64,000 bases of DNA from Candidatus Spongiisociaceae bacterium (GTDB taxonomy: Bacteria > Actinomycetota > Acidimicrobiia > Spongiisociales > Spongiisociaceae): contig OZ241842.1 of assembly GCA_965202675.1 (NCBI GenBank), positions 2,001,962 through 2,065,961 of the forward strand, in the 5' to 3' direction. The notes under the pieces were generated by a model that did not search any database, had not been told where the DNA came from, and was given only the letters and a program-made list of their open reading frames with translations. The position numbers and the translations under genes are program-made. Positions 8,342 through 45,338 of the stretch are shown here, piece after piece. Position 1 is the first letter of the stretch, and each line of letters opens with the position of its first letter.

Positions 8342-8369
8342 GTAACGCAAGGCTGGAAACAGGAGACAG

Positions 8370-9959: not shown

Positions 9960-9962
9960 TCC

Positions 9963-11465: not shown

Positions 11466-11529
11466 CCCCGGCAGACCCCTGGAGCTTGTTCGAGCCGGCG
11501 CGCACTGGGCCGCCGGTAAGAGGCACAAG

Positions 11530-11796: not shown

Positions 11797-14700
11797 GTGC
11801 GGGTGCTCGACGCCGATAACCTCGAAGGCTGGCTCGAATCGAACTATGTCGTCCATGTTCGGGTATCCGAGCAGCTCGGCCGCCGCCCTTTGGAAGCGGA
11901 GTCGTTGGACAGGTGGTGGCCTCGGTGGGCGGACCAGACGGATCCGGTTTTGCCGCCGGCCCTGCTGTTGGCCGGCCGTCGGGCCGAGGCGGAGAAACTT
12001 TGCGCCGCGTTGACCGGGCCCCCGAAGGTCACAGGGGTTCGGGCCGCCTCGCGAGAAGAGGCCTTAGCTTTCGGGGCCGTTGCCCTGAGCACGGTCAAGG
12101 ACGACGTTTCTGCTTCGCCGGCGGCAGTGGTCGTCAAGTCTCTTGCGGTGTGGGATCGGTGTGCGGCGAGTCCCGGCCCGGCCATTCTGATCCCCCCGCG
12201 GGTCGAGGGCATCGACCTGCCGGCCGCGGTCCGGCAGGGTCATCCGGTTCTGATTCCTATGGGAGCAGGTGATGTCGACGGGGGAGGCGAAACGATCCTG
12301 CTTCCCCGGATCGGTCGGTCGGAGGCGCGGGAAGCACTGGAGGCGGCCGGAGCGTCTTCGGACAAGGCGGACGGATACGCGGTCGCGGCCCGCCGGAGCC
12401 TGCTGTCCCTGCGCCGAAGGATTTCCCTGCATCCCGCGACGGCCAGACCTGTGTGGGCGCAAGGCGGGGAAGCCGAGCTGTTGGCGGCCCTCGTATTGGT
12501 CGGGGCGTGGGAACAGAACAACGACTATGACCGCGCCGCAGTGGAGCGGATCGCTGATTGCGGCATCGAGGCGGTGGAGCGCCGGCTGCAGCGCTGGGAG
12601 AACACCGATGATCCTCCCTTCCGACGTTCGGGCGGCGCTTGGCGGTTGTCGTCTCCGGAGGATGCATGGCCGCTCCTTCGCAGCATGATTACCCGGGATT
12701 GCCTGAGGCGGTGGCGCGAGGCAGCGCTCGGAGTGCTGGGCGCTTCCGGTTCGGCGATCGAGCCGCCCGGGGGCCGTTTCTTCGCCCCCTTCCCAGGGGC
12801 GGCGCGGAAATGGTCTGCCGATCTGCGGAGAGGGTTGGCGCAGGGGGCGGTTTTCCTGGCGGCCTTCGATTTGCCGCGGCCCTTGGACGGTCTCAGAGGT
12901 TCCGAACACGCCGAGCGGATGGTGATGGAACTGTTGGATCAGGCAGGCGCCGACTCCGCCGGCGTGTTATGGAGGTCCTTGGCCGATGTACTGCCCTTGC
13001 TGGCAGAGGCGGCGCCGGACATCTTCCTCCGAGCTGTACATCGAGACGCGGCGGGCGGCGCCCCTTTGTTGGCCGGAATGTTCACCGACGCCTGCGGGTT
13101 CACAGGGTCCCCGCATACCGGCCTGCTCTGGGCTTTGGAGGCCTTGTGCTGGTCGGATAGATACCTGCCCTCTGCCCTGGACGCCCTGTTGCGGTTGGCC
13201 GAAATCGATCCGGGAGGCCGGACGGCCAACCGACCCCTGGACAGCGCGCGCCGGGTGCTCCTGCCTTGGCTGCACCAGACAAGCGCCTCGATCGAGCGCC
13301 GTATGGACGTGCTCGACGGTGTTGTGGAGCGTCATGAAAAAAAGGGATGGGAGCTGTTGCTGAGCCTGGTTGCTCTGCGGGGCAGTCATACGCACAATAT
13401 CAACAGACCGCGATTCAGAGATTGGATGACCGAGACGACGGGAATCTCCGGAGAAGAATCACGGCGGGCGGCAGAAGCGATTACTATCCGAGCGCTCAAA
13501 AAGGCTGGCGCCAATCCCTATCTTTGGGCGCAGCTGATCGAACACATACCCCTTCTCTGGGTTGGGCAGAGAGAACAGGTCATCGATGCTCTCGAAAGCT
13601 CAGGCATAGAGGCGCTCGACCATGGTGATCGCTTCGTCATTTGGAAGTCCCTGAACAAGTTGGTCGGGAACCGTCCGGATCGGAAGGCTCTACAGGATAG
13701 ATTGTCTGCCGCCGGCCTTGAGCGTTTGGAGAATATAAGGACCAAAATACGCCCCGATACGCCAGAAGTTCTGATCCAAGAGCATCACGAGTTGTTCGAT
13801 TGGCATCCAGAACGTTCGGATAGAGAGCGTCAGGATGCCGTCACAAGCATCTATCGATCAGCGGGAGTCGGGGGGCTGAGAGACCTGTCGAAGGAAGCTG
13901 TTCGTCCGGAATTGATCGGTGCATCGTCAGCTGACGCCATTATTGATCTGAGGGCAGAAGAGATGCTTCCCCTGTTGAACCAGGAAGGGCCGGATCGCGC
14001 GTTCGTTATGGGATGGATTACTCGAAGGGCAGAGCTCGACGGGGCGGAATGGATAGAAAGAACTGCGGATTCATTGGCAGATTTGTCTCATTCTGGCCAG
14101 GCTCTCTTCTTTCTTTCCTTGAGTCCTGATACTACTGTATGGAAAATCTTGGACCAGATGCCGCCCTCTGTCCAAGATCAATATTGGGAACGGGTCCATT
14201 CTTTTTATATACCACGGAGCGATTTCCTGATGTACTTGGATAAGCTCTTGGAGCACAGGCAACCTTGGTCTGCTGTAGAGTTCCTGTTTAGTCAACTAAG
14301 CAAGGATAAGAAGGAGGGCGGCAGCCTGGTTACAAGCGAGATGGTAGAGCGAACTATACTCAAACTGATAGAATCTGATACGAAGGAGCACCCCAGCGAG
14401 ATGTCTGCCTTTTGTCTGGGTAATTTGCTGGACTATTTGGATAAGCACGAGCCCGACTCGAGCAACCTGGCTGATTTCGAGTTAGCTCTATTTTCGGTAC
14501 TGCGCCGGTCCGACCGCCCGCCGACCGCGATATACCGGCGGCTCCAAGCAGAGCCGGCCGAATTCGTCAAACTGGTCTGCGGCGTCCATCGACTGCCTGA
14601 CGAAGAACCGGAAAATGATTCATTCGAAAGTACTGCTCCGCTTGATAATGCCTGGTCCATTCTGAAGGAATGGCGGACTTTGCCGGGCACCGACCGCGAT

Positions 14701-15126
14701 ACAGGCGATATCGAGCACGAGCGGCTGCGGGCGTGGGTGTTGGAGGCGCGCCGGCTGTTGCGGGAACGGGGCCGGAGCAGCATCGGAGACCAGTACATAG
14801 GAGAGCTCCTGTCCGGCGCCCCATCGGGAAGAGATGGGATATGGCCGGCCGAGCCGGTGAGGGATCTGCTGGAAGAGCTTGCGAGCGAAGGCGTGGAGCA
14901 GGGTGTTCTGGTCGGCCGCTTGAACAGCAGGGGGGTTACCGTCCGTGATCCGTTCGAGGGCGGCGCCCAAGAAAGGGACTCGGCCGGCCGGTACAGCGAT
15001 TGGGCGCAGCAGGTCGAGGCCAAGCGGCCGAGCACCGGCCGGGTGCTGCGGCAGTTGGCCGACTCCTATGAACGGGAAGCCCGCCGGCATGACGAAGAGG
15101 CCGAAGCCCTATCCGACCAGGATTGA
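11797..15126 (+). CDS. Large (1109 aa) hypothetical alpha-helical protein in a partly low-GC insert; no domain recognised
   Basis: The long ORF has sensible codon usage. GC drops to about 55% over roughly 13.3-14.7 kb. The frame stays open upstream of the GTG at 11797. ATG 11573 opens a second frame (146 aa) that overlaps it, so a frameshifted N-terminus is possible. Confidence 0.55.
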   Translation: MRVLDADNLEGWLESNYVVHVRVSEQLGRRPLEAESLDRWWPRWADQTDPVLPPALLLAGRRAEAEKLCAALTGPPKVTGVRAASREEALAFGAVALSTVKDDVSASPAAVVVKSLAVWDRCAASPGPAILIPPRVEGIDLPAAVRQGHPVLIPMGAGDVDGGGETILLPRIGRSEAREALEAAGASSDKADGYAVAARRSLLSLRRRISLHPATARPVWAQGGEAELLAALVLVGAWEQNNDYDRAAVERIADCGIEAVERRLQRWENTDDPPFRRSGGAWRLSSPEDAWPLLRSMITRDCLRRWREAALGVLGASGSAIEPPGGRFFAPFPGAARKWSADLRRGLAQGAVFLAAFDLPRPLDGLRGSEHAERMVMELLDQAGADSAGVLWRSLADVLPLLAEAAPDIFLRAVHRDAAGGAPLLAGMFTDACGFTGSPHTGLLWALEALCWSDRYLPSALDALLRLAEIDPGGRTANRPLDSARRVLLPWLHQTSASIERRMDVLDGVVERHEKKGWELLLSLVALRGSHTHNINRPRFRDWMTETTGISGEESRRAAEAITIRALKKAGANPYLWAQLIEHIPLLWVGQREQVIDALESSGIEALDHGDRFVIWKSLNKLVGNRPDRKALQDRLSAAGLERLENIRTKIRPDTPEVLIQEHHELFDWHPERSDRERQDAVTSIYRSAGVGGLRDLSKEAVRPELIGASSADAIIDLRAEEMLPLLNQEGPDRAFVMGWITRRAELDGAEWIERTADSLADLSHSGQALFFLSLSPDTTVWKILDQMPPSVQDQYWERVHSFYIPRSDFLMYLDKLLEHRQPWSAVEFLFSQLSKDKKEGGSLVTSEMVERTILKLIESDTKEHPSEMSAFCLGNLLDYLDKHEPDSSNLADFELALFSVLRRSDRPPTAIYRRLQAEPAEFVKLVCGVHRLPDEEPENDSFESTAPLDNAWSILKEWRTLPGTDRDTGDIEHERLRAWVLEARRLLRERGRSSIGDQYIGELLSGAPSGRDGIWPAEPVRDLLEELASEGVEQGVLVGRLNSRGVTVRDPFEGGAQERDSAGRYSDWAQQVEAKRPSTGRVLRQLADSYEREARRHDEEAEALSDQD

Positions 15127-15160
15127 GCCGAGCTCTTGCGGTCGATGAGCGCGCCGGGGG

Positions 15161-16228
15161 TTATCCGGCTATGAAGGACTCCACGGCTTGGCGGGCCTCT
15201 TCGTCGCGCATCTGGCGCGGGGGAGACTTCATGAAGTAGGCGCTCGGCTCGTACAGCGGGCCTGCCAGCCCCCGGTCCAGGCCCAGCTTGGCGCAGCGGA
15301 GGGCGTCGATCACCACCCCGGCCGAGTTGGGGCTGTCCCAGACTTCCAGCTTTACCTCGGCGCTCATGGGGGTGTTGCCGAAACCGGTTCCCTCCAGGCG
15401 GATATGCGCCCACTTGCGGTCGGTCAGCCAGGGAACGTGGTCCGAGGGCCCCACGTGGATGTCCTCCACCGGCATATGGGTTTCCAGCTGGCTGGTCACG
15501 GCCGTGGTCTTGGACTCCTTCTTCGACTCCAGGCGGCTGCGTTCCAGCATGTTCAGGAAGTCGGTGTTGCCGCCGAAGTTGAGCTGGTAGGTGCGGTCCA
15601 CCTCGACGCCTCGGTCCTGGAAGAGGTTCACCAGGCTGCGATGCAGGATGGTGGCGCCCACCTGCGATTTGATGTCGTCGCCCACGATGGGCAACCCCGC
15701 CGCCCGGAACCGCTCGGCCCATTTCTCGTTGCGGGCGATGAACACGGGAATGCAGTTTACGAAAGCGCACCCGGCTTCCAGCGCCTGCTCCGCGTAGTAC
15801 TCGGTGGCCTGCTGCGACCCGACCGGCAGGTAGGAGATCACCACGTCCACCCCGGCCTTTCGCAGCTCCTCGGCTACGTCGACCTCCTCCTCCAGGGACT
15901 CCTCCACCAGGTCGGCCACATAGGAACCGATCCCGTCCAGGGTGGGGCCCCGCTTCACGGTGACGTCCAAATGGGGGACCTCGGCGAACTCGATGGTGTT
16001 GTTTTCGCCGGACTTGAGGGCCTTGGAGAGGTCTTGGCCCACCTTGGCTGCGTCTACGTCGAAGGCCGCCGCGAACTCGATGTCCCCGATGTGGTAGCCG
16101 CCCAGCTCGGGATGCATCAGTCCGGGGATGGTCTGGCCGGGATCGGCGTCCCGGTAGAACTCCACTCCCTGCACCAGGGCGGAGGCGCAGTTCCCCGCCC
16201 CCACAATCGCCGCCCTTATCTTGCTCAC
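15161..16228 (-). CDS. ino1: myo-inositol-1-phosphate synthase (inositol-3-phosphate synthase)
   Basis: The protein is near-collinear with actinobacterial Ino1, for example [17 protein letters not shown]...NNTIEF...GPTLDGIG...SYLPVGS...IKSQVGATI...[22 protein letters not shown]...[17 protein letters not shown]. It starts at GTG with a GGAGGAGG RBS. Confidence 0.9.
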
Positions 16229-28945: not shown

Positions 28946-30395
28946 GCTTACTCACCTCCGTAGGTTTCCAGTATAGTGATGGCGAAGTCTCGGGCAAATT
29001 CAACACCTTCCGCTAGGGAGAACACAGTGAGTGGCCAGTTATGCTCACTGTATGTCCACATTTCCTCATCGGTCACAGCAGGAGGCGCTTCCGAATAGTG
29101 AGCTACTCCGAATAAACCGGCCGCCCATTTGGTTTCCCATCCTAAGAAATCAATCATCAAAGAGACCGCTTCGCTGATGACATCCTGAGGAACTTGATAC
29201 AAGACTCGCGCCGACTGCAGGGACTCCTTTAGCCCGTTTTCGAACTCACGAGAGTTGCCGTCTGGAATCATGGCCTCGGTTATTGCTCGGGTAGCTAGTA
29301 ACCATGGATAATCGGGGTAAGAACCAAGCAATCGGCCAGCCGCGCCTCGCCACTCGCGTGCGGTGGTCTCGGTTTCTATTATGTTCCATTCTATTATCCA
29401 TTCAAGGAAACGAAGATACGATTCCTGCACTAATCGCAATAATACTTGGGTTGCGAATCCCTCCTGTAGATAATCCAATATTTGTCGCCGCATTTCCATG
29501 TTAGGATCGCTATTTTCGGCGGCGGAGTGTGTAGCCAACCACATTTCTCTCATCGACCGGCGGCGCGCTGTCTCGATTGTACGATATACAAACCTTATCA
29601 ATTCCTGTCCACATCTTTTGATAGATGACATCAGGTCACCCGGATGCCCTATTCTGTTCCTTATCGCTGTTATTTGTCCAGGTTGACTTCGTTCAATAAA
29701 GGCTTCCAAACTCTTAGTAACTGTTTCCATGCTTACACTGCGAACTGTGACTTCGAAGGTTTGTGATCCGCGCTCCTTTAGATAATCTTCTACTACTCCT
29801 AGAACGGCCAGTCTGTGAAGGGCCCGTTCACGAGCATCCTCGCCAGCTCTCGTTTGTCTATCTCTAAAAGGCAGGCTGATCTCTTGTCGTTCTGTCCTCG
29901 GGTTCAATTCGTATGCAACTCTCATGAGGACAGATATCTCATCTTCCATACCAGCGAAGGTATTAAGGTGAAACCATAGGGCAGTAGTAACATCATCTTT
30001 GGCTCTATTACTAATCTCTTCAATCCGTTGTCGTATGTCCTCCAGAGGAGTATCTTCCGACAAAAGATTCTGATTCCGATCCTTGTCGAATTCGCTAAGG
30101 ATCAGCATGCATTCTGCTCGATCTCCGTCGCGTCCTGCTCTGCCTACTTCCTGATAGTAAGCCTCTATGGATCTTGGAAACAGGTAGTGAATACTCCACC
30201 TAATGTTAGGTTTATCTATCCCCATGCCAAAAGCACTGGTGCACACTAGGGCTAATATTTCATTGTTCATGAAGCGATTAACACTATCGTCCTTTATTAT
30301 CTCGAATTCATGGTGGGAGATGGTTCTTGGATTGCTACCCGCGTACACACCTACGCTAGGACAGATTATCGCAACGGCATCTTTAGCATTAATTA

Positions 30396-31209
30396 GGGCG
30401 TGTTAACACTATTTCGTTTTGATATGGTATCATGCGGGGATGGAGATTACAGAAGCTCAGTACGAGCGTATCAAGTCGTATTTACCGACGCAGCGCGGTA
30501 ATGTCCGCGTGTCGAATCTGGATGTGCTCAACGCTTTTTTGTATGTGTTGGAGCACGGATGTAAGTGGCGGGGGTTGCCTGACCGGTTTGGTAATTGGCA
30601 TACCATCTACACGCGGATGAACCGCTGGTCGAAGAATGGCGTGCTGGACAGGGTGTTTAGGGGTTTGCAGGATGAGGGGATCATCCGGATGAATCTGGAG
30701 GTTGTTTCTTTGGACAGCACGATCGTCAGGGTTCATCCCGATGGGATGGGCGCTCTGAAAAAAAGGGGCCCCAGGCGGTCGGCCGGTCCCGGGGGGGTTG
30801 GACGACCAAGATTCATATGGTTGCCGCGGATGCTCGAACGGCGGTGATGTTTTCTCTTTCTGCGGGTCAGGATCATGACGCTGCGCATGGGCGGAGGCTG
30901 TTGGAGCGGATCGGCGTGCAACAGGATCCGTTGTTCCTGGTGATGGACCGGGCGTATGAGGGGGACGAGACGCGGCAGTTGGCTTTGGATCTGGGGTATA
31001 CGCCGGTGGTTCCTCCTACAGTCCGGCGGCGGAACCCTTGGGTCTATGACCAGGAGGTTTACAAGCGGCGCAACGAGGTCGAGCGGTTGTTCCGACGGCT
31101 GAAGGAGTATCGTCGTGTCTTCTCCCGTTACGATAAACTCGACGTGGTTTACCTGGGGTTCATCACCTTTGCGCTGATAACAGAAACCCTACGTAGTGTT
31201 AACAGGCCC
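30396..31209 (+). mobile_element. IS5-family (IS427/IS1031-group) insertion sequence, 814 bp, with imperfect terminal inverted repeats and a TA target duplication
   Basis: IRL is GGGCGTGTTAACACTAT and IRR is ...TAGTGTTAACAGGCCC. TA flanks both ends. GC is about 50%. It encodes an orfA-orfB transposase. Confidence 0.8.
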
Positions 31210-31212
31210 TAG
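30440..31212 (+). CDS. IS5-family transposase (orfA-orfB, programmed -1 frameshift at A7 run ~30758-30764)
   Basis: OrfA reads MEITEAQYERIKSYLP...VSNLDVLNAFLYVLEHGCKWRGLP...WHTIYTRMNRWSKNGVLD. OrfB (30817-31212) reads ...DHDAAHGRRLLE...LVMDRAYEGDETRQLALDLGYTPVVPP...NEVERLFRRLKEYRRV, the DDE_Tnp_1 C-terminus. The two ORFs overlap around the GAAAAAAAG slippery site. Confidence 0.75.
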
Positions 31213-33715
31213 TCCTGGTAATCCTCCAGGGCGTTGATTAACAGTAGGAACGAATACCAAGCCGGAGAAGGTCTGCTCTCCTCTATTAGGCATAAAATAC
31301 CTTGCTTGATTGACATCAAACAGGGCGGGCAAGCGCCTCAAGCAACCTTGGAGAGTAACTGGGTGATCAGGGGAAGTACATCTTACATGATAGTTGAGTT
31401 CTGGTCGATCAAAGGATTCTGGTTGTACGATAGAATTATCATTGTGTTCCATAATACCCAACTGAAATAGTACATCGCTTAGTACTGCTCGAGATGCTGT
31501 TCCAGTTAAGGCAAGCAGTGGGGGAGGTTGTCCGCTTTGATCTTTAGATAATTTACGAATAATGTTGCCCAAATTGAGGTATGCATATCTGAAGTCATGC
31601 CCCCATTCAGAAACGCAATGTGCCTCGTCTACTACGACTAGGTTGACAAGAGTAGCGTTTGCCAACCTAGCTAAAGCCTTTCTAAATTTCTTTGTCTGAA
31701 TACGCTCGGGAGCGACAAACACATAGTAAGGCTCGGCATTTGCTATATGTTCCAAAACTACATCTTGTTCTCTAGTACGACTTGTGATTTCTTGTACACG
31801 GTCGATGCCGTGGCTTCGTAGGCCTTTAACTTGATCATTAATCAAGGCTACCAACGGGTCGATCACTAAGGTTCGTCCGGGCAGGCATAACCCGGCTAGC
31901 TGATAGATCAAGCTCTTGCCCGCCCCCGTCGGGAGAAGCACGGCACAATCCCTCATGGACATGACCTCGACTATGGCTTCATACTGACCATCACGAAAAC
32001 CCTCTTTGGCAAACACAGCGCGGAGTAATACCCTCAGAGGGTCCCTGCCCTCGTCTCCTTCGATATGAACGGTTGCTCGATTGTTGTCGCCTTCTAGGCG
32101 ATCGGACATCAGAACGGGAACACCTGTGGATCGGATAACCACTGTTGGTGTGCCATCGCGATCAGGGAGTGGCTGGCACGAAGTACGATCACACTGCAAC
32201 AGGATACGGGCGCGAGGGTTAGACACCGATTCTTCGGAGGCATCTTGGCGCTCGTATCGGCCTTCCGGGGTGCGGTGGAAGAGTACTCTATCTTCACTGT
32301 CCTCGAATAACACTCGTCCTGGCACAACGGAGCGGGCATCCCACAGGCAACAGAGGGCGTAAAGAACTTCCAGATATGGTACTATCAGTTCGATGGCCAT
32401 ATGCGTAGGATCTTCGACTTCTACTATCCAGGAATCCCCGCTTAGGAATCCGCGGCGGATGGCTTCGCATAGTCCCAAAACCAAGCGATGAACCTGGATA
32501 GAACCCCAGACCAATAATTTATCTTCATCCGAGGGATTTGTGGCTTGACTGACTGTCGCCTCTATAGCGTTGGTAACGGCTTCAAGTTGAGAGCCGTGTC
32601 CCATTCTGATTTCACTTGTAGACACGCGGATAGTTTCTATGCCGATATTTCTAAGCAATTGGTCCCGCTCTTGGTCAGTTAGTTGTTGAGTTTCGTGTTG
32701 CGTACCGTCTATTTCAATTACAAATGGACAGCTACCCGGTGGTGCCCAGAGAAAATCGCAACGGCGGTTCCCGCCTGCTCCATGGCCTGCTGCCTGCAGG
32801 AGGCCGTCTAATGAAGCTTGAGGTATCAGCCAACGAGCAACTCGTGGATGGTGCTCTGCCATCCATTCCATCAGTAGCCGTTCCTCGTCCGATTCAGCCA
32901 GAGATGGTTCGATTTCAACGTGGTAGCCACCGGGTATCACGGTGAGGTCGCGTAAGCTCACTGAATAAGAATCGTGCAGATTGAATGACACATCTCCCGG
33001 TTGCGAGCTAGGTCGGATACGGTCACCTAGACCGACAGACTCAATCAGTATCCGCTCAGAGTCGGGGTGTAGGGGCGGTGTCAATCCTCGGCGGAGAAGT
33101 TTGCCCATTACGTCCAGCACTCTTTGAGTGTTTCTATCAGACTCAAGTTCGTGGAGAGGGGATGTGCTTGCTATCCAGCAGTTGGAGAGAGAGTCCATGT
33201 CCTCAACCTTGACAGACCTAAGAGATGCTCCTACAGTGGCATATTCGACCTGCCAGCCAGCATTTTCGAAGCCAAAGGTACCATCAGACCAGTGAACACG
33301 TTGTTTTCTGAGAACATCCTGCCCGAATACCTTTGCTGGGTTCGGATGATTGGTGATCATCGTGTCGGGCTGAGGTGTATCCGGAGGGTTTATTATTGGC
33401 GGGTTAGCCCTTTTTTCCTCGTTGCTATTGAAAGTTGTGGTTCCTCGGCAACTGGGGAATTGCAGGCATCCCCAGAAACGGTTTCCGGACCTTGCCCCCT
33501 GCTTCGCGGTGCGAAGGGTCATATCACTCCCACATCTTGGGCATCTGGGGCGGTTTCCACTCGTGCTGTTCCTTCGCCACGTTGACCCCCCGCGCTTGCG
33601 GTGGTCTGTCTCGGAGTCTAACCCCGACGAGGGGTCGCGGTTTCTGGACACACAGGCGTTTGGTGATCGACAAAACTGTCAGGCGGCGATCCCGATGAAG
33701 GGTTATGCACCTCGC

Positions 33716-36353: not shown

Positions 36354-36914
36354 TCAGGCTGGCCGGGTTCCTTCGGGGCCGGCGGCGCCGCGATTGCGTT
36401 CCTGTATTCGGTACAGCTCAGGGAGGGCGGCCAGGTCCGGTTCCCGGCGGAGAGCCTGCTTTGCTTCGATGATGTCGTCGAGGTGCGCTATCAAGACGGC
36501 GGTTCCATATATACGGACAGTGCGGGCCTTGGGCAGGAGCGCATCGTAATCGGCCAGGTTGCCGGCCCGGGTCGGGGCGCCCGAAACGACATCGAGGTCG
36601 CCGTGGCGGGTGCGCCAGGCAGATACCTCAAAGGACGACAGGGACTGTCCGTCGATGGGGAAGTCGACGACGGCTCGGGAACCAGGGGTGTCTCCTTCCA
36701 CGCGCAACCGGGCGCCCATCGCGACGAGAGCGTCCGCAAGCCGGCCGAGGTTGCCGTCCTGCCATTGCGGGGTTATGTCGAAGCCTCTGGTTACGCGGTG
36801 AGAACCGTGGGCCGCGGCGGCGATGCCTCCTATGACTATGTAGACCACCTTGTGCTCGGCGAGGGTGTCGACCATTTCCCTGGTCGAGAGAGCGGGCGCG
36901 TCAGGGTCGCTCAT
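36354..36914 (-). CDS. Nucleotidyltransferase-fold-like protein (possible toxin/partner of XRE regulator)
   Basis: The start is taken at MSDPDA (residue 104 of ORF 36354-37223), overlapping the XRE stop as ATGA. The IVIGGIAAAAHGSHRVTRGFDI hG[GS]...D motif is suggestive but unconfirmed. Confidence 0.45.
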   Translation of the reverse strand: MSDPDAPALSTREMVDTLAEHKVVYIVIGGIAAAAHGSHRVTRGFDITPQWQDGNLGRLADALVAMGARLRVEGDTPGSRAVVDFPIDGQSLSSFEVSAWRTRHGDLDVVSGAPTRAGNLADYDALLPKARTVRIYGTAVLIAHLDDIIEAKQALRREPDLAALPELYRIQERNRGAAGPEGTRPA

Positions 36915-37261
36915 GGGGAGAGGCCCGAACGGAGCTGGGACACCAGCGATGCGTAGGCGTCGTTGGCGGATAAGCGTTCTTCCACTTTCTGTTCCAGCGC
37001 TGTGGAGGAGAGCAGCTCGTGATCGGGCCGGTCTGCAAGCTTCAGCTCCAGGTGCATGCCGCAGGCTTCGACGATCCGGATGAGGGTTCCGATCTCCGGC
37101 AGGACCAGGGCCCGTTCGTACCGGCTGATCTCGGCCTGCGATGTCCCGGCCCGCTCGGCCAGCTCGGCCTGGGTGTACCCCGCTCTCCGACGCGCCTCGC
37201 GGATAATCGACCACGCCGGCCATCGGGCCGGATCGATCCGTCGTTTGGGCGCCGCAACCAT
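36911..37261 (-). CDS. XRE-family helix-turn-helix transcriptional regulator (antitoxin-like)
   Basis: AGYTQAELAERAGTSQAEISRYERALVLPEIGTLIRIVEACG is a classic Cro/C1 HTH. It is 116 aa. Confidence 0.7.
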   Translation of the reverse strand: MVAAPKRRIDPARWPAWSIIREARRRAGYTQAELAERAGTSQAEISRYERALVLPEIGTLIRIVEACGMHLELKLADRPDHELLSSTALEQKVEERLSANDAYASLVSQLRSGLSP

Positions 37262-37370
37262 CCTGTTATGTGTTATAGCATATATTCAGGAGTCCTCGGA
37301 CCATTACGTTGGGCCCGAGCGTCCAAGCCGACCTCAGGGAAGTACATCCAAAGTTGTGCGGCGCTCGAAA

Positions 37371-37456
37371 TTCTAGGGAAAATACCTATAATCCAGCGCA
37401 AAGTTGGGATTTTTGCTAAGAATTTGCTAGTTTCTAGGGAAAATACCTGTAATTTG
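37371..37456. promoter_or_regulatory. Two 22-25-bp direct repeats (TTCTAGGGAAAATACCT[A/G]TAAT) each embedding a -10-like hexamer, in the divergent XRE/ATPase intergenic region
   Basis: Copies sit at about 37371-37395 (with a perfect TATAAT) and 37432-37456 (TGTAAT), spaced about 61 bp apart in an AT-rich region. Confidence 0.4.
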
Positions 37457-37497
37457 GACAATCCGGGGTTCTGGGGTCGGAATCGGGAGGAGATGGG

Positions 37498-39546
37498 ATG
37501 GCGGGGCGGCCGATGTTCAGGCGGCGGGTGCTCGATAGGGCGCTCGAGGCCATGCGCAGCTTTCCGGTGGTGATGCTGCAGGGGCCGAGGATGGTGGGCA
37601 AGACCACCCTGCTCGAGGAGATGGCCGGGCGTTTGGGCGGGGCTGTCGTCGATCTCGACCACCCGGGCGCCAGGTCGAAGGTCAGGGCCGACCCCGACTC
37701 GGCGGTCACCGGACCCGGCCCTGGGTTCATCGACGAATATCAGAAGATGCCGGAGTTGCTCAACTACATAAAGGCCCGGCTCAACGTCGATGGGTCCCCC
37801 GGCCGGTTTGTGTTAACCGGATCGTCCCGTCACGAGGCTCTGCCCAGGGGCGTCCAGGCGTTGACCGGCCGGTTGCTCAGGCTGCCTGTTCTGCCCCTGT
37901 CGCAGACCGAGATAGCCGGGGCGGGGGGCAACTTCATCGAAAATATGTTCGACAGCCCGGAGGCGTTCGCTTCCTCCGGCGGCGGCGGCCGCGAAGACTA
38001 TGCGGCGAGGGTCGTTGCAGGGGGGTTCCCCATGCAGGTCAACAGCCGCGATGACCGAGAGCGCCGGGGGATGATTGAGCAGTACCTCCGGCTGTCGATC
38101 GAGGTGGACGCCCGCGAGCTGCTGCGGGTGCACCGGCCCGAGGCCCTTTCCTGCTTTCTGCAGCGGCTGGCCGCCCAGACCGGGCAGATCCTCAACATGG
38201 CCAAGGCGGGCGGTGATGTGGGCGTCAAGGCCGGCGCCGCCGAGAACTACACCAGGCTCTTGGAGGCTGTCTTCATCCTGCGGCGGCTGCCGGCGTGGCG
38301 GAAGACCGCCCGCGGTCCGGTCCGCCGCCCCAAGATATACGTCCTCGATTCGGGGGTGGCCGCCCACCTGCTCGGTTTCACGGCGGAGAGGCTGCGCAGC
38401 AACGCCCCTTTTGCCGCCGAGCAGTTCGGTCATCTGCTGGAGACCTTCGCGGTGGGCGAGATTTGGAAGGCGGCCTCGTGGCTGGAAGACGCCCCCATGT
38501 ACAAGGTCGGGTATTGGAAGCACCGGAGCGGCGCCGAGGTCGATCTGGTGATCGAACGTCCGGACGACGGCGCGGTGATCGCCCTCGAGGTCAAGGCCGC
38601 CCAACAGGTCCGGCCCGATGACACCAAGGGGCTCCGCCTGCTGCGGGACGAGCTGGGGGAGCGCTTCAGGGCCGGCGCCGTGCTCTACACCGGTCGTGAA
38701 ATATACCGCCTGCCCGACGGCCTGTACGCGATGCCCATCGAAGCGGTGTGGCAAGGGGAGGCCGTCGAACAGCCCGGCCCCGACCGGCGCCGGCATGGAG
38801 GAGGGAAGGTTCGCGCGCCGGGCGGGCTTCGGGCTGCGGGCGAGGCCGCCGCCGAGGATGCATTGCCGCCGCCGGTCCGCGCCGCCGCCGACCGGATGCT
38901 GGAGATGCTGAATCCGGGGGAGTCGGCTTACTGGGAGATAGCGGTCACGCCGTCAGAGCCGGTGCACTTCGACGACTTCTATTCCTCGGCGGGCGTTCGC
39001 GGCGCCCTGATGGAACTGCAGACCCGTTATCCGGGGCGGCGGGCCTTCGGCCTCGGCCATCAAGGGGCGGTGCAGACCATCGGCGAGTGCGCAGCCCTGC
39101 TTGACGCCGGCCGGGGGATCCTGGTGCATCCGGCGGGAACTGTGGCGGCGGCGGCCTTGGGCATCGATGCAGAGTTCCGGGATTTCCTGGGATGGTCGGA
39201 CGACCTTGAAGACAGGCATCTCATCGCCAGGCACGAAGTACTGAACCAGTGGCCGCTGGAGATCGCCCTCTTCATCCATGAGCAGCTCCGGCCCTGCCTT
39301 CCGGCCGGGGAGTTGATCTTCTGGTCGGCGGGCAGGCGGCTTCTGACCGGACGGCCCGCCCTCCTGCTGGGGGATGAGCAAGGATCGCCGCCCTCGCTGA
39401 CACCCGCGGTGGTCGACAACCCCTACCGCAAGAGAATCCTATCCACGGGCGATCCCGAGGTCGACGCCTACCACCTGAAGGCGTCCTTCTACGAATGGTT
39501 CGGCATTCCCGCCGCCGACCTACCGGAAGCCGGCAGGGCCGTATAG
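37498..39546 (+). CDS. AAA_14/DUF4143-family ATPase with ~280-aa C-terminal extension of unknown function
   Basis: It has a Walker A motif (LQGPRMVGKTTL), a DUF4143-like middle region and a strong GGGAGGAG RBS. The 682-aa length compares with about 400 aa for typical family members. Confidence 0.7.
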   Translation: MAGRPMFRRRVLDRALEAMRSFPVVMLQGPRMVGKTTLLEEMAGRLGGAVVDLDHPGARSKVRADPDSAVTGPGPGFIDEYQKMPELLNYIKARLNVDGSPGRFVLTGSSRHEALPRGVQALTGRLLRLPVLPLSQTEIAGAGGNFIENMFDSPEAFASSGGGGREDYAARVVAGGFPMQVNSRDDRERRGMIEQYLRLSIEVDARELLRVHRPEALSCFLQRLAAQTGQILNMAKAGGDVGVKAGAAENYTRLLEAVFILRRLPAWRKTARGPVRRPKIYVLDSGVAAHLLGFTAERLRSNAPFAAEQFGHLLETFAVGEIWKAASWLEDAPMYKVGYWKHRSGAEVDLVIERPDDGAVIALEVKAAQQVRPDDTKGLRLLRDELGERFRAGAVLYTGREIYRLPDGLYAMPIEAVWQGEAVEQPGPDRRRHGGGKVRAPGGLRAAGEAAAEDALPPPVRAAADRMLEMLNPGESAYWEIAVTPSEPVHFDDFYSSAGVRGALMELQTRYPGRRAFGLGHQGAVQTIGECAALLDAGRGILVHPAGTVAAAALGIDAEFRDFLGWSDDLEDRHLIARHEVLNQWPLEIALFIHEQLRPCLPAGELIFWSAGRRLLTGRPALLLGDEQGSPPSLTPAVVDNPYRKRILSTGDPEVDAYHLKASFYEWFGIPAADLPEAGRAV

Positions 39547-39581
39547 CCTTCTCGCCTCTGCCCGGTCGGGCGGGGGGCGGA

Positions 39582-40966
39582 TCACGCGGAGGCGGGTCCT
39601 TCCCGCAGCCGGGCGGCGAGATCTTCAGGGGCGGTGAAGACCACTTGCCGGCCTTCCTTGTAGTCGTTGAGCCATCCATGGTTCTGTAGGGTGAGTAGAT
39701 CAGTGCGCGCTGTTTGTCGGGATACGTTGTGGCTGCGGGCATGGCTCTGGTATGTGTAGCGGGTCCCCGGTTTTCTCAGGGCGTGGCCGAGCAACGCCCT
39801 TTGCCGGTGGTTCAAACCCGGTAGTTCCCCCGCCGCCTGCTCCGCGGCGCGGGTTCGTTCAATGGTCTTGTCAACGTAATTTGCCAATTCCTCGAATGCC
39901 CGTCCCATGACATCGAGCTGGTGGAGGAGGAAGTACGTCAGGTCATTGTCGTCGGTCTCGGAATGGATGAAGGCGCGTCCGTATTGTGCGGGTGCACCCA
40001 GGATGATCTTCGAGATAGAGACGAATTCGACCAGCCAGTACCCGGCCCGCAGGGCGTCCAGTAGAACAGGGCGCGGGCGGTGCGTCCGTTGCCGTCGACG
40101 AACGGATGCACGTAGGCCAGCCAGAAGTGCAGCATGATCGCCTTGACCAAAGGGTGGGTGAACGGTCCGTGCTCGTCGTTGGCGAACTCGCAGAGCTGAT
40201 CGATGCGCTCCGGGATCTCCTCCGCCGGCGGCGGCTTGTGCACCAGATCTTCATCTCGGTCGTAAACGGCCACCCTGGCCTCGCCCGGTTGTTGAAACCG
40301 CCCGGCGTCCGCCGGTTCTTCCAGGGTTCCATCGGTGAGCTCTGCATGCAGCTCCATCAGCAGGGCCGGGGTCAGATCCTGCGTTGCGGCCTCCCCGATC
40401 CGGCGAATGGCCCGGTAGTTGTTGATGATCATCCGCTCCGATCGGTCGCGGGGTTGCCGTCCTGCCCTCAGCATTTCCTTCGCCACTCGGCGGGTAGTAG
40501 CGGCGCCTTCGAGCAGTGAAGAGGAGATGGCTTCTTCGATCATCCCCCGCACCATGTACCGGTCGCGGGTGGTTCGGTCCACGACCGCGGCGGGCGCGGC
40601 CAGCCGGCCGGCGGCGCGCAGGTCCAGGTGGTGCAACCGCTCCAGAAGCGGGTCGACGAGGCTGTAGGTGAACGGTTCGCCGCGCGTGTCCATCAGATCG
40701 GTCGGTCGGGCGGACAGATGCCGCGTCAGGCGCATTCCCATCCACCATTGCTCCCGGGTGAGCCCCTCGGGGGGTTTCCGCCTGCGTACCTCGTCCCAGT
40801 GCAGGTAGCGGCCGTTTACGGCGGCGCCGATTTCGACCAGCCTGCTCAATATTTGGGGGCCGACGCCCTCCAGCGCAGTGGACATCGGCGGCGGTCGTGC
40901 TATTCGGATGGTCATTTCTGCTCCGAGTGGTGGGGGCTTCCTGCCGGGGACAGCAAGTGCAGGCAA
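39582..40966 (-). pseudogene. Fic-family protein gene (DUF4172-Fic-wHTH architecture) with a frameshift just after the Fic motif
   Basis: ORF 39938-40966 carries HPFVDGNGRTARALFYW and then runs out of frame. The authentic continuation (LLDALRAGYWLVEF...) and the C-terminal wHTH (ORF 39582-39908) lie in the adjacent frame, so a 1-nt indel is implied. Confidence 0.7.
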
Positions 40967-41037: not shown

Positions 41038-42033
41038 TTATCCGTCTTCTCGGGCGAGGCCTCGGCGGCGGATTATCTCGGCGGTGATGGCGGGCACCAC
41101 CTCGTGGAGGTCGGCGATCACGGCCCAGTCGGCTTTGGTGACCATCGGGGCGTCGCGGTCGGTGTTGACGGCCAGGACGTGCTTGGCGTTCATCATGCCC
41201 ACCCAATGCTGGATGGCGCCCGAGATGCCGCAGGCGATGTAGAGGTCGGGCGCTACGACCGTTCCGGTCTGGCCCACCTGGAACTTGTGGTTCTTCCAAC
41301 CGTTGTTGGTAACCACCCGCGAGCAGCCCACCGCGCCGCCCAGCAGCTCGGCCAGCTCCTCGATGCCGGCGAAACCCTCGGCGCTGCCCACGCCCCGCCC
41401 CCCGCTCACCACCACCGGCGCGGTGGCCAGGGTGATCCCTTCGGTGAGGGTCACCCGGTCCTGCACCATGGTTGCGGCGGCCGACTCGTCGAGCTCCGGG
41501 GTGAACACCGAGCGCCGCCCGCCGTCCGCAGCCGGGGAGGGGGCGGCCTCGGTGCTGTGCGGAGCGAGCGTTACCAGCTTGGTCGGGGCCGACAGCCGGG
41601 CCTGCTCGTGGAGGCTGCCGCCCCAACGGACCCGGGTCATCGTCCAGTCGGCGCCGTCGGCTTCGATCTCCAGGCAGTTGGCGGCCATCGCCAGGTCCAT
41701 CCTCGCCCCGGCCCCGGCCATGACCTCGTTGCCCCGATCGGTGCCGGTTGCCATGACCGCCGCCGCGTCGAGGGCGCCGGCCAGCTGGACCAGGCTGTCG
41801 GCCCACGCGTCGGGTCCGTAATCGGTGAGCATCGGATGCCGGACCAGATGGGTCTCCTCCGCGCCGTAGGGGTCGATCTCGTCCGCGACCGCGTCCGCCC
41901 CCTCGCCGATCACCGCCGCATGGAGCCGGGCGTCCATGGCCTCGGCCAGCAGGCGGGCCCCGGTGAGGCCGCCGAGCGCCGTCTCTTCGATCCGGCCGCG
42001 GTCGTGCTCGACCAGGTAGAGGAAAACGCTCAC
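41038..42033 (-). CDS. etfA: Electron transfer flavoprotein alpha subunit
   Basis: The C-terminal FAD-binding signature is present (LYIACGISGAIQHWVGMMNAKHVLAVNTDRDAPM). Confidence 0.9.
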   Translation of the reverse strand: MSVFLYLVEHDRGRIEETALGGLTGARLLAEAMDARLHAAVIGEGADAVADEIDPYGAEETHLVRHPMLTDYGPDAWADSLVQLAGALDAAAVMATGTDRGNEVMAGAGARMDLAMAANCLEIEADGADWTMTRVRWGGSLHEQARLSAPTKLVTLAPHSTEAAPSPAADGGRRSVFTPELDESAAATMVQDRVTLTEGITLATAPVVVSGGRGVGSAEGFAGIEELAELLGGAVGCSRVVTNNGWKNHKFQVGQTGTVVAPDLYIACGISGAIQHWVGMMNAKHVLAVNTDRDAPMVTKADWAVIADLHEVVPAITAEIIRRRGLAREDG

Positions 42034-42797
42034 AGCAGGCCCAGCCCCTCCATGATGTCGGCGACGGCCGGGGCCGCATCCGCCCCCTCGCCGAGGATCT
42101 CAACGGCGCCGCCTTCCGCGGGCGGGGTAACCAGCATCACCTTGGACTGCCCGCTCGACCCGGCCGCCGGCTCGATCCGTTCTACCGCAGCCTTGCGGGC
42201 GGCCATCCGGCCCTTCAAGGTCGGGTAGCGGGGCAGGTTGATGCCTTCCTTGACCCCGACCGCCGCCGGGAGCGGCAGCCGGTACACCTCCGAACCAGAG
42301 GGGGTCTCGCGCCGGAGGGTCACCGACCCGTTCTCTACGTCGATGCCCTTCACGCCGTTGACGATGGGCCGGCCCAGCGCTCTGGCGGTCCGGACGCCCA
42401 CCTGGTAGCCGCCGGAGTCGGCCGACTCGTTGCCGAACAGGATCAGGTCGAACGGTTCGCCCGCGGCGCCCTCCAGTCCGGCGGCCGCGGCGGCCAGGGC
42501 CTTGGAGGTGGACACCGGATCCCAGTCGGGGATGCCGGTCGGCAGGAGCACCAAGGAATCCGCCCCCACCGCCGCCGCCGAACGCAGCTGCTCCTCGGCC
42601 TCCGGCGCCCCCAGCGTCATCACCGTCACCGAACCCCCCTCCCGCTCTGCGATCTGCACCGCTTCTTCGACCGCGCACTCCTCATGGGGGCTGACGGTGA
42701 ACCCCAGCAGGGCGGCGTCTATGTCCTGGGCGTCGGGGGTCAGGACGATCCTCGCCCCCGGCGCCGGAACCCGCTTGACGCACACCAGTATCCGCAC
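42030..42797 (-). CDS. etfB: Electron transfer flavoprotein beta subunit
   Basis: MRILVCVKRVPA... is the EtfB N-terminus. The gene overlaps etfA by 4 nt. Confidence 0.9.
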   Translation of the reverse strand: MRILVCVKRVPAPGARIVLTPDAQDIDAALLGFTVSPHEECAVEEAVQIAEREGGSVTVMTLGAPEAEEQLRSAAAVGADSLVLLPTGIPDWDPVSTSKALAAAAAGLEGAAGEPFDLILFGNESADSGGYQVGVRTARALGRPIVNGVKGIDVENGSVTLRRETPSGSEVYRLPLPAAVGVKEGINLPRYPTLKGRMAARKAAVERIEPAAGSSGQSKVMLVTPPAEGGAVEILGEGADAAPAVADIMEGLGLL

Positions 42798-42821
42798 GGG
42801 GTTACCCCGGAGCCCCGTTGT

Positions 42822-45338
42822 TCAGCATTTCATCCGGCTGTCGTCGGGGTCGAACAGAGGCCGCGAACCCACCCTGGCCACCGTCACCGGAAACAGCTCG
42901 TTCTGGTACATGACCTGCAAGGACCGCCCTTCCTCCGCCAGGTCCGGCGGCAGGTAGCCCAGCAGGAGGTAGGCGTCCAGCGAAGGGCCCGCCCCGGCGG
43001 AGGTAACCCGCGCCTCCCGGCCCTCGGCGTCCGTGATCCGACCGCCGTCCGGGGTAAGTATCGGCTCGCTGCCGCCCATCGGGAAGCGGGGAACCCCCGA
43101 ACCGCCGTCCGCCGTGTGGCTGTCCATCGTCAGGGTGCAGCACACCGCCGCCGGGCCTTCCTCCCTCGCCGCCAGGTACGCCTGTTTGCCTATGAAATCG
43201 GCGCTTTTGACCCTGGGGCGGGCCAGGCCGGCTTCGACCGGGTTGTACTCCGACTCCAGCTCCGCCCCCATGAGGCGGTAGCCCTTCTCCAGCCGGGCGG
43301 TGGTCCCGTAGACGCCCGCCCCCACCGCCGCCGCCCCGAACTCCCGGCCCGCCTCCCAGAGCGCATCCCACAGCATCGGGGCGTGTTCCATGCCGGCGGT
43401 GATCTCCCAGCCCAGCTCGCCCACATAGGAGATGCGGAACATGGTTACCGGGATGGAGTCGATGACGGCATGGCGGAACGCCCCGTAGGGGAACCCTTCG
43501 TGGGAGATGTCGTCGGAGGTGATCTTGCCGACCAGCCGGCGGGCGTCCGGCCCCCACACACCGATGGTCGACAGGGCCGAGGTCAGATCGGTGAAGACAA
43601 CCGATCCGTCCGAAGGAAGCCATTTGCGGAACCAGTAGGCGTCCCGCCCGCCGTCGAAGCCCCCGGTTATCACCCGGAAATGGTTCTCGCCCATCCGCAG
43701 CACCGTCAGGTCGGAGCGGAAGCCGCCCTGCTCGGTGAGCAGCGGCGTGTATATCCCGCTTCCCGCCGGGCGGTCCACCGTGTTGACCGTCATGTACTGC
43801 ATGTAGTCGAGGGCGCCGGGGCCCTTTACGTCGAAGACGGCGAAGGCGGTCAGGTCGATCATGCCCGCCCGGTCCCGCAGGGCCAGGTGCTCGGCGTTCT
43901 GGATGGGCGACCACCAGCGGGAGTCCCACTCGTGGGGGCGCTCCGGGATCCGGTCGCGGTACTCCTCCAGCAGGGGGGCGTTCGACTCGTACCAGTGGGG
44001 CCGCTCCCAGCCGCCCGCCTCGAAGTACACGGCGCCCAGGGCCGAGGTGAGGGGGTGGAGGGAGCTGACCCGGCTGCTGCGCCTGGTTTCCCACTGCTCC
44101 CTGGGGTGGACGATGCCGTAGGTCTTGTTGAAGTGCTCGGAGCAACGGGCCAGGATGTGGCGCTCGGTCTTCATGTAGGGGTAGAAGCGGGCGATGTCGG
44201 AGGCGTGGGGGTCGATCTCCGGGTAGCCCTGGGTCATCCATTCGGCCAGGGCCCGCCCGGTGCCGGGGCCTTCCTTGATCCAGATGGCCGCGCACGACCA
44301 GAGGTTGCGCACCTCCGGGGTCTCGCCCACCAGGGGCATGGCGTCGGGGGTCAGCGACAGCAGGCCGTTGATGCCGTACTTGATCTCGGCGTCGCCCAGG
44401 AAGGGCATCAGCTCCACCGCCTGCTCCAGCTGCGGGTCGAAGTCGTCCATGGTGAGGGGCAGCTCGGTGGGGGACAGGCGGGACTCCTCGATGGAGGGAA
44501 TGGTGTCGGGATGGTGGAAGATGGGCCGGTGGGCGTAGGAACCCACCTCCATGGAGCCGCCGGTCTGGCGCTCGTAACAGAAGGTGTCCATGTCCCGGAC
44601 GATCGGATAGCCGATCTCGCTGTTGGTGGCGGAGAGGATGTCGAGAGGCCCTACGTCGATCATCTGATGGACGGCGGGGGTGAGGGGGATGGACGCTCCG
44701 GCCATCCGGGCCAGGCGGGGCGACCACACCCCGCAGGCGATTACTGCGTGCTCGCAGGCGATCCGGCCCTTGTCGGTCACCACCGCCTGCACCCGCCCCC
44801 CGGCGGTTTCGATGTCCGTCACCTCGGTAACCGGATGGACCGACAGCGCGCCGCGCTCCTGCGCGTACTCCCGCATCAGGGTTCCGGCCCTTAGGGAGTC
44901 CACCACCGACACGCTGGGCGTGTACCAGCCCCCCAGGATGACGGACGGGTCAAGGAAGGGCACCAGCTCGGCCGCCTCCGCCGGGCTGACCAGCCAGCTT
45001 TCGATCCCCCAGCACTTGGCGGAGGTCATGCGGCGGTCGAGCTCGTGCATGCGTTCGGGGGTGCGGGCCACCTCCAGTCCGCCCGAGACGGTGTTGACGC
45101 CCATCTCCTCGTACTGGCGCTGGCTGTCGAGGGTGAGATGGGCCATCTCCTTGTTGTGGTCGACCGGGTAGATGAAGTTGGAGGCGTGTCCGGTGGAGCC
45201 GCCCGGGTTGGGAAGGGGGCCCTTGTCGATCTGCACGATGTCCCGCCATCCGTGCTCGGCGAGGTGCCTCACCACCGAGTTGCCGACAATCCCGGCGCCG
45301 ACCACGACGACTTGGGCGTTGGCGGGGAAATCGCTCAT
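42822..45338 (-). CDS. Dimethylglycine/sarcosine dehydrogenase family (FAD DAO domain + GcvT-like folate domain), 838 aa
   Basis: An N-terminal GAGIVG FAD fold is followed by a C-terminal aminomethyltransferase-like domain. The gene sits adjacent to etfAB. Confidence 0.8.
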   Translation of the reverse strand: MSDFPANAQVVVVGAGIVGNSVVRHLAEHGWRDIVQIDKGPLPNPGGSTGHASNFIYPVDHNKEMAHLTLDSQRQYEEMGVNTVSGGLEVARTPERMHELDRRMTSAKCWGIESWLVSPAEAAELVPFLDPSVILGGWYTPSVSVVDSLRAGTLMREYAQERGALSVHPVTEVTDIETAGGRVQAVVTDKGRIACEHAVIACGVWSPRLARMAGASIPLTPAVHQMIDVGPLDILSATNSEIGYPIVRDMDTFCYERQTGGSMEVGSYAHRPIFHHPDTIPSIEESRLSPTELPLTMDDFDPQLEQAVELMPFLGDAEIKYGINGLLSLTPDAMPLVGETPEVRNLWSCAAIWIKEGPGTGRALAEWMTQGYPEIDPHASDIARFYPYMKTERHILARCSEHFNKTYGIVHPREQWETRRSSRVSSLHPLTSALGAVYFEAGGWERPHWYESNAPLLEEYRDRIPERPHEWDSRWWSPIQNAEHLALRDRAGMIDLTAFAVFDVKGPGALDYMQYMTVNTVDRPAGSGIYTPLLTEQGGFRSDLTVLRMGENHFRVITGGFDGGRDAYWFRKWLPSDGSVVFTDLTSALSTIGVWGPDARRLVGKITSDDISHEGFPYGAFRHAVIDSIPVTMFRISYVGELGWEITAGMEHAPMLWDALWEAGREFGAAAVGAGVYGTTARLEKGYRLMGAELESEYNPVEAGLARPRVKSADFIGKQAYLAAREEGPAAVCCTLTMDSHTADGGSGVPRFPMGGSEPILTPDGGRITDAEGREARVTSAGAGPSLDAYLLLGYLPPDLAEEGRSLQVMYQNELFPVTVARVGSRPLFDPDDSRMKC

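Follow-up and report, generated by a model that had tools for sequence, protein, structure and literature searches.

The present analysis concerns a 4.6-kb islet (36354-40966) in a 64,000-nucleotide (nt) stretch of contig OZ241842.1 from a Candidatus Spongiisociaceae bacterium (assembly GCA_965202675.1, positions 2,001,962 to 2,065,961). This whole stretch is called the window hereafter and its own numbering is used. The islet carries an XRE-family helix-turn-helix (HTH) gene, a gene for a 186-amino-acid (aa) nucleotidyltransferase (NTase)-like protein, a gene for a 682-aa ATPase-nuclease with an unannotated C-terminal domain (CTD) and a frameshifted fic gene. It is flanked by two catabolic operons. 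One has genes for a GcvT-like aminomethyltransferase and a major facilitator superfamily (MFS) transporter; the opposite one encodes EtfA, EtfB and a DAO-FAO_M-GCV_T dehydrogenase. Given these flanks, an earlier annotation made from the letters of the window (the original prediction) was fair in placing the islet inside a catabolic locus. Its gene map was borne out by ORF listing and Pfam, with each of the four genes at the predicted place. The following features were assigned:

36354-36914, minus strand: MenT1-like minimal NTase of 186 aa, putative toxin, copy with the substitution D44G
36911-37261, minus strand: XRE-family HTH gene (116 aa), putative antitoxin and autorepressor of the pair
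37267-37284, no strand: imperfect 18-bp palindrome TATGTGTTATAGCATATA just upstream of the XRE start codon
37371-37392, plus strand: copy 1 of a 22-nt direct repeat, TTCTAGGGAAAATACCTATAAT, which ends in a -10-like TATAAT
37432-37453, plus strand: copy 2 of the 22-nt direct repeat, TTCTAGGGAAAATACCTGTAAT, which ends in TGTAAT, 45 nt upstream of the ATPase start codon
37498-38757, plus strand: ATPase-nuclease core (aa 1-420 of the 682-aa protein) with AAA_14 P-loop and DUF4143 PD-(D/E)xK domains, PDC-S01 type
38842-39546, plus strand: CTD (~aa 449-682), unannotated alpha+beta domain
39582-40056, minus strand: 3' part of fic in a shifted frame (ALRAGYWLVEF...REGPASA), SoFic-like C-terminal region
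39938-40915, minus strand: 5' part of fic, 325-aa product as called, with an SSLLEG inhibitory-helix motif and the Fic motif HPFVDGNGRTAR

The locus has a guanine-cytosine (GC) content of ~0.62-0.70 (roughly 68%), compared with 48% in the 236-bp AT-rich intergenic region around which the XRE and ATPase genes diverge. The ATPase and fic genes are convergent and lie 35 nt apart. No match was obtained when the islet was compared with plasmids by megablast, and Rfam and tRNA scans of the region from 25 to 50 kb found nothing.

The XRE-nucleotidyltransferase pair

The XRE protein was matched by the Pfam families HTH_3 (E=8e-14) and HTH_31 (E=1.5e-12). The TGA stop codon of its gene overlaps the ATG of the 186-aa open reading frame (ORF) in an ATGA at 36914-36911, which bears out the predicted translational coupling of the two genes. 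In five unrelated contexts (loci L001/2, L003-5 and L009/10, the overlap being recorded in L001, L003-5 and L009), the XRE and NTase genes overlap by 4 or 8 nt, and such an overlapping pair is also present in L012 and L018, which are syntenic relatives. In one distant homologue of the NTase, the upstream partner is another protein, of 58 aa, whose gene likewise overlaps by 4 nt; a family search for this partner found none. An overlapping upstream gene is always present beside the NTase gene, encoding an XRE HTH protein or, in distant relatives, the 58-aa protein, and it is not of the MenA or AbiEi type. Two small, co-directional and coupled genes, an HTH protein encoded by the first of them, a palindrome at the promoter and movement as a unit make up the layout of a type II toxin-antitoxin (TA) system. 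By this anatomy, the XRE-NTase pair may be regarded as a TA-type cassette of type II style with a putatively toxic NTase.

The window and L012 share the conserved element ATATATGCTATAACACATA ahead of their XRE genes despite different neighbouring genes, and other XRE-NTase loci have palindromes of their own at the same position. The palindrome at 37267-37284 is likely to represent the putative XRE operator together with the promoter. XRE would repress the operon there, close to its own start codon, and would neutralise the NTase.

The 186-aa protein of the window was searched with hidden Markov models (HMMs) and had no direct match in Pfam (even at E<=10), NCBIfam or PADLOC; its relatives reach DUF6036, DUF2204 and AbiEii. 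In total, 52 homologues were found, the more distant ones with DUF2204 and DUF6036. When 24 aligned homologues were scanned against Pfam at E<=0.1, DUF6036 (PF19502) matched 16 of the 24 (best E=2.2e-6), DUF2204 (PF09970) matched 14 (best E=3.7e-7) and AbiEii (PF08843/DUF1814) five (best E=0.0021). The nucleotidyltransferase-like motif that had been noted earlier was confirmed as an NTase pattern (IGG...HGS...T-R-G-F-D). According to the alignment, the family consensus reads GG...HGS...T-x-D-x-D-VVP, followed by a GDLD strand and K...R-x-x-D. It holds the full core of GG, T42-x-D44-x-D46, D108 and K152, and the window copy fails at position 44.

An AlphaFold2 (AF2) model of the NTase built from the family alignment reached a predicted local distance difference test (pLDDT) value of 92. 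Its best match in the PDB according to Foldseek was MenT1 from M. tuberculosis (8an5_B, E=6.9e-6, probability 1.00) with a template modelling (TM) score of 0.58, followed by TM1012, LnuA and ANT(2''). In the profile alignment, T42/D44/D46/K152 of the NTase fall on T39/D41/D43/K137 of MenT1. In MenT1, D41 coordinates Mg2+, the D41A and K137A mutants are inactive, and the antitoxin induces auto-phosphorylation at T39 (PMC11375011). Judged by its fold and motifs, and by analogy with MenT1, the NTase would use nucleoside triphosphates to modify tRNA 3' ends and would thereby halt translation.

The NTase resembles MenT1 in its minimal NTase fold and similar size (~190 aa) and in the small upstream partner gene that is translationally coupled to it. 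GG, T-x-D-x-D (including the position of the phospho-acceptor Thr), R-P-x-D and the catalytic Lys are common to both (PMC11375011). The NTase differs in that the partner is an XRE HTH protein and not MenA1 or a COG5340 AbiEi protein, in a sequence identity of only ~18%, and in the absence of the first catalytic Asp from the window copy. Unlike MenT1/AbiEii, the window protein has no significant DUF1814/AbiEii match in Pfam, and its relatives are nearer to DUF6036 and DUF2204. A role as an MNT-type antitoxin was also considered and rejected because a HEPN partner was not detected.

The window NTase reads TRGFDITP, so that the first Asp of T-x-D-x-D is replaced by Gly (D44G). Since this is the Mg-binding Asp equivalent to D41 of MenT1, the toxin of the window is predicted to be dead, i.e. 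enzymatically inactive. Among 15 full-length variants with >=88% identity, 45 of the 186 alignment columns vary. Only two of the 22 family-conserved positions are among them and both are catalytic carboxylates: four variants have D44G, two have D108N and one has D108G. One further variant has D106G. By our own count, the chance that both variable conserved positions fall among the three carboxylates is ~3 in 231. The fold was kept while the chemistry was lost repeatedly, which fits an enzyme with a costly activity.

LnuA and ANT(2'')-Ia are among the top fold matches (TM 0.52-0.55), and the Pfam family Aminoglyc_resit was weakly matched by three of the 24 relatives (best E=0.011). This would suit a small-molecule nucleotidyltransferase of the ANT(2'') or LnuA type that serves in antibiotic resistance or detoxification under XRE control. 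Such an enzyme is rather unlikely, given that MenT1 is the best fold match with aligned T-x-D-x-D and Lys positions, that the coupling to a small HTH gene and the two-gene movement are typical of TA modules, and that repeated loss of the catalytic Asp is what one would expect of an activity with a cost for the cell.

The ATPase-nuclease and its C-terminal domain

The full 682-aa ORF (37498-39546, plus strand) is divergent from the XRE gene. Pfam recognised AAA_14 at aa 23-139 (E=3.5e-17) and DUF4143 at aa 203-367 (E=1.7e-32), followed by ~260 unannotated residues. The PADLOC model of PDC-S01 (PDLC04790) matched with E=1.9e-127, aa 5-419 being aligned to model positions 10-419 of 422. The divergent DUF4143 AAA ATPase with an unknown extra domain that the original prediction had described was thus recovered. 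DUF4143/COG1373 has been placed in the PD-(D/E)XK superfamily (PMC3424549). PDC-S01, an ATPase fused to PD-(D/E)xK, was reported as the fourth most common defence candidate (PMC12988326); it is not mentioned in the main text of the PADLOC 'embedded defences' preprint.

The window protein has an intact Walker A (GPRMVGKTT), an intact Walker B (FIDEYQ) and an intact nuclease motif (EVDLV...ALEVK). Those full-length proteins of the >=90% cluster that were inspected have the same Walker motifs and retain the nuclease D and E-x-K. The ratio of nonsynonymous to synonymous substitution rates (dN/dS) of the core is 0.26 against L012. The 682-aa protein is a candidate single-gene defence protein of the PDC-S01 type, which would act as P-loop ATPase and PD-(D/E)xK nuclease. 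It resembles PDC-S01 in that aa 5-419 fit the HMM end to end with both Walker motifs and the PD-(D/E)xK motif preserved, and differs from the ~420-aa canonical form by an additional linker and an alpha+beta domain of ~235 aa. In L016, from a related 3.0-Mb genome, a canonical 420-aa DUF4143 ATPase (3034-4296, minus strand) lies 4 kb from the 688-aa, CTD-bearing P0055 (8001-10067, plus strand), and hence both forms coexist in one genome.

An Ala/Gly/Pro/Arg-rich linker (~aa 421-448) joins the ATPase core to the CTD. A C-terminal domain of ~280 aa had been predicted; the domain itself stood, but its length had to be corrected to about 235-260 aa. An HMM search found no Pfam family for the CTD, even at E<=10. 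The domain has no close solved fold; its profile gave nothing against PDB sequences, and nothing significant was obtained against BFVD. Word-indexed searches with the CTD gave one and six proteins, respectively, and the family was seen only by an exhaustive HMMER search, which detected only 27 CTD representatives among 1.84 billion. They comprise AAA_14-DUF4143-CTD proteins, proteins whose N-terminal domain is a Schlafen AlbA_2 (420-484 aa), and a few listed as short proteins of 233-254 aa. The AF2 model of the CTD has a pLDDT of 88.8 and a predicted TM score (pTM) of 0.88.

A word-indexed search had returned a single homologue, P0053, which is called as a stand-alone protein of 227 aa. This would be in line with a C-terminal 260 aa that is a read-through into a formerly separate or non-coding region and not a functional domain. 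The contig of P0053, however, merely starts inside the linker. In the window, the codon-position GC pattern continues in frame through the CTD and its dN/dS of 0.27 is the same as that of the core, by which a non-coding read-through is effectively refuted. The fused architecture of 673-724 aa recurs in P0055, P0056, P0074 and most of 26 cluster members, and the AF2 model of the domain is a confident one. The read-through is thus a most improbable explanation, and the in-frame GC pattern, the dN/dS value and the recurring fusion argue for a real C-terminal extension.

The conserved positions of the CTD alignment are mostly Gly, Phe, Trp and Pro, which favours a putative binding or sensor role over catalysis. 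Some bacterial Schlafen/AlbA_2 (PF04326) proteins (P0058-P0078, 420-484 aa) have the same CTD as the ATPase. They differ in their N-terminal module, which is AlbA_2 and not the ATPase-nuclease, and the window protein is without AlbA_2. One AlbA_2-CTD gene lies amid genes for an integrase, a transposase and a YD-repeat toxin. Judged by this domain swapping with Schlafen/AlbA_2 proteins, the CTD is most likely a sensor or partner-binding module, and this rare alpha+beta domain would serve the ATPase in that capacity.

Upstream of the ATPase gene, no match of the kind seen in the 22-nt repeat pair is expected by chance (0 in 100 shuffles). A promoter-like match was found at copy 1, and both copies are kept in L018, from a strain that is ~95-96% identical. 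In L012 and L013, where the ATPase orthologues have no XRE neighbour, AT-rich DNA with direct repeats of loose similarity likewise lies upstream of them. As the repeat-bearing AT-rich DNA stays with the ATPase where XRE is not adjacent, the repeats were assigned to the ATPase promoter region, and they appear to belong to the ATPase rather than to XRE. The original suggestion that operator-like repeats at 37371-37456 may act on this unit was not supported for the XRE-NTase pair, since XRE has its own conserved palindrome and the repeat DNA follows the ATPase in L012 and L013. The ATPase would be transcribed from this AT-rich region, with a putative -10-like box in each 22-nt repeat.

The fic gene

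The 5' part of fic was matched by Pfam Fic (E=2.3e-19) and by PADLOC SoFic and has a dN/dS of 0.22; its longer ORF is bounded at 40966 (39938-40966, minus strand). The 3' ORF as called covers 39582-39908 (minus strand). The reading frame changes right after HPFVDGNGRTARALFYW and is lost after the W at 40058-40060. It is a 1-nt deletion, intact relatives having TGG TAC GCC where the window has TGG-AC GCC, and the deleted T lies outside any homopolymer. Intact 444-aa variants read ALFYWYALRAGYW, at least nine of which are among the listed members of the >=90% cluster, and the intact orthologue of L012 reads ...ALFYWRALRAGYW... The frameshift that had been called after HPFVDGNGRTARALFYW was hence verified against intact orthologues. 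The assignment to the DUF4172 type was not, as Pfam found no Fic_N/DUF4172 even in the repaired protein. Programmed frameshifting was rejected because the relatives are simply intact.

The repaired 444-aa protein matched PADLOC SoFic with E=1.5e-39 (aa 125-431 on model positions 57-353 of 361). Pfam SoFic-like_C on the 3' part was weak (E=0.006) and below the cutoff. The intramolecular inhibitory motif of Fic classes is defined as (S/T)xxxE(G/N). In the repaired protein, it is found N-terminal to the Fic core as S132-S-L-L-E136-G137, and the Fic motif HxFx(D/E)GNGRxxR is present as HPFVDGNGRTAR. The gene would encode a class II AMPylase of the SoFic type and a toxic abortive-infection effector; SoFic is reported to be a toxic AMPylase that causes abortive infection (PMC12249575). 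The likeness to SoFic consists of the Fic motif, the N-terminal S-x-x-x-E-G, the PADLOC match and the faint SoFic-like_C region. The window gene differs by its 1-nt deletion, by ~125 N-terminal aa that lie outside the SoFic HMM match and contain no Fic_N, and by the absence of a small downstream AS1-like gene (PMC12249575), which is explained by the ATPase gene converging on fic from 35 nt away.

Over the 155 codons past the frameshift, no further stop or indel was observed, and dN/dS against L012 is 0.18. This lack of decay indicates a lesion that is either recent or an error. It would also agree with an islet in which nothing is degenerate, in which case the frameshift and D44G would be neutral, or artefacts of sequencing or assembly, and each of the three modules would be active; a homopolymer indel elsewhere in L017, a separate contig from the other assembly of this strain, shows that such errors occur in these data. 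L017, which has 0 mismatches and this one indel, carries the same fic allele, which favours a real allele, and the deleted T (TGG-T-AC) is not homopolymeric. D44G is a substitution that was seen in four cluster members and the equivalent D41A of MenT1 is inactive. Moreover, fic is unambiguously disrupted in L018, which has the same synteny as the window: a 4.1-kb insertion (8747-12871) has taken the place of 116 nt that include the Fic motif. This is an independent knock-out. A fully active islet is accordingly improbable, and the fic gene of the window would have been inactivated by a recent 1-nt deletion.

The 4.1-kb insertion of L018 encodes a 539-aa protein with a weak SLH match and a 148-aa protein with a marginal ('faint') match to DUF4190 (PF13828). 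No transposase, insertion sequence features or terminal repeats were recognised in it. In L012, direct repeats of ~50 nt (CCGCCAAGTGTATAATyTAGTGCTAATTA...TTAGCACTT) at 8310-8360 and 9700-9760 bracket the intact fic gene. They may be a duplicated promoter/operator or the footprint of a rearrangement that moved fic relative to the ATPase.

Three modules in one islet

L012, from a Candidatus Spongiisociaceae metagenome-assembled genome (Acidimicrobiia), has the same genes between the same catabolic genes, with a different order: fic lies between the XRE gene and the ATPase gene, the MFS and GcvT genes have the reverse orientation, and downstream of the ATPase gene there is a fragment of a DDE transposase. 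The ~3.4 kb between ATPase and etfA of L012 contain this fragment (12127-12528, minus strand) and an ORF with a weak HIRAN match (14214-15200, minus strand), where the window has nothing. The absence of this transposase-bearing insert from the window supports an insertion hotspot. Similarity of the window to L011 stops a few bases past the ATPase stop codon.

The window, L012 and L018 have the four genes side by side, and in the window XRE and the ATPase diverge around their shared repeat region of 236 bp. They could therefore be read as one integrated system, in which XRE regulates both divergent promoters via the 22-nt repeats and NTase, ATPase-nuclease and Fic act, for instance, as signal generator, sensor and effector. 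However, neither the ATPase nor an adjacent fic gene accompanies the XRE-NTase pair in L001, L003-5 and L009, and the ATPase with its CTD occurs without the other modules in L013 and L016, the copy of L016 being located among housekeeping genes. In L012, fic parts XRE from the ATPase, the palindrome stays with XRE and the AT-rich repeats stay with the ATPase. In addition, the genomes in which the genes co-occur are close relatives (the flanking DMGDH of L012 and the window is 93% identical), so that their synteny reflects shared ancestry. A single integrated system thus has little probability, and the proposal of the original prediction that the four genes form one TA or abortive-infection cluster was not sustained. 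What remained of its degenerate or novel cluster is the TA/defence-like character and the degeneration, which affects the catalytic Asp of the NTase and the broken fic gene.

As the modules are separate elsewhere and rearranged in L012, they can be described as three independent modules that share a hotspot. The islet is probably such a hotspot, holding three self-contained conflict modules co-inherited in one sponge-symbiont-like lineage of Acidimicrobiia and carrying functions that we infer throughout. The hosts appear to be sponge-associated Acidimicrobiia. Two toxic enzymes would be disabled and the ATPase would be intact, by which the sequence suggests a partly disarmed defence/TA islet. 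Repeated and independent knock-outs would have hit both toxic enzymes, and not the ATPase, in close relatives. This pattern would fit selection against, or a relaxed need for, self-toxic effectors.

Several points weigh against this reading. Toxicity, antitoxin action, tRNA modification, phage defence and XRE binding are all inferred, and PDC-S01 itself was reported as still unvalidated experimentally (PMC12988326). The sequence link between the NTase and MenT1 is weak (profile E=0.016) and the TM score is only 0.58, the resistance enzymes LnuA and ANT(2'') score close to MenT1 in the fold search, and the window NTase is without a direct match to any curated family. XRE is more conserved than the NTase (92% vs 73% identity and dN/dS of 0.11 vs 0.26 between window 36354-37261 and L012 7362-8257), whereas in TA pairs the toxin is usually the better conserved partner; this points to a further role of XRE. 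The CTD family has no invariant polar residue, only D192 being nearly so, and hence no activity can be proposed for it. The counts of population variants were drawn from metagenome assemblies that may not be independent of one another. Finally, the three modules stay together in the window, L012 and L018, so that a functional link within this lineage is possible.

New here would be the unannotated CTD and an XRE-paired, MenT1-like NTase subfamily outside the curated models. It is a tentative and somewhat doubtful further step to regard them as two unannotated families of wider relevance, namely a distantly TBP-like CTD that is a swappable sensor or partner-binding module on two kinds of protein that target nucleic acids, the PDC-S01 ATPase-nuclease and Schlafen/AlbA_2 proteins, and defines a new, rare defence class, and an XRE-controlled subfamily of MenT1-like, tRNA-modifying toxins whose Asp was knocked out repeatedly. 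If true, the NTase subfamily would show the disarming of a toxin in progress within a natural population of symbionts. The XRE-NTase pair would extend the NTase toxins of the MenT/AbiE type to a new type of partner, and a PDC-S01 variant with an extra domain shared with Schlafen proteins would offer a handle on what such proteins sense. The variants may serve as a natural experiment on the cost of abortive-infection toxins, with the catalytic residues of the NTase hit, fic broken in two independent ways and the ATPase intact. Basic understanding is left unchanged by the islet, which is a moderately novel and useful case.

Compared with L012, the synonymous divergence (dS) of the islet genes is 0.55-0.85 and that of the flanking EtfA and DMGDH genes (41038-45338) is 0.23-0.31. 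The two- to three-fold higher values in the islet are possibly due to allelic exchange, separate acquisition or a stronger codon constraint on the catabolic genes.

Elsewhere in the window, an island of lower GC content (0.44-0.58) at 28948-33651 (minus strand) contains a large helicase gene. Its N-terminal part encodes 820 aa (31189-33651) with a Top1-type Zn ribbon, DUF559 and a DEAD helicase domain. As read from the sequence, a 466-aa ORF (28948-30348) would resemble the C-terminal part of the helicase, and a pair of small ORFs between the two parts (142 and 131 aa; 30419-31212, plus strand) is probably IS5-family transposase-like. The helicase locus would be another defence-like gene that was split by a mobile element.

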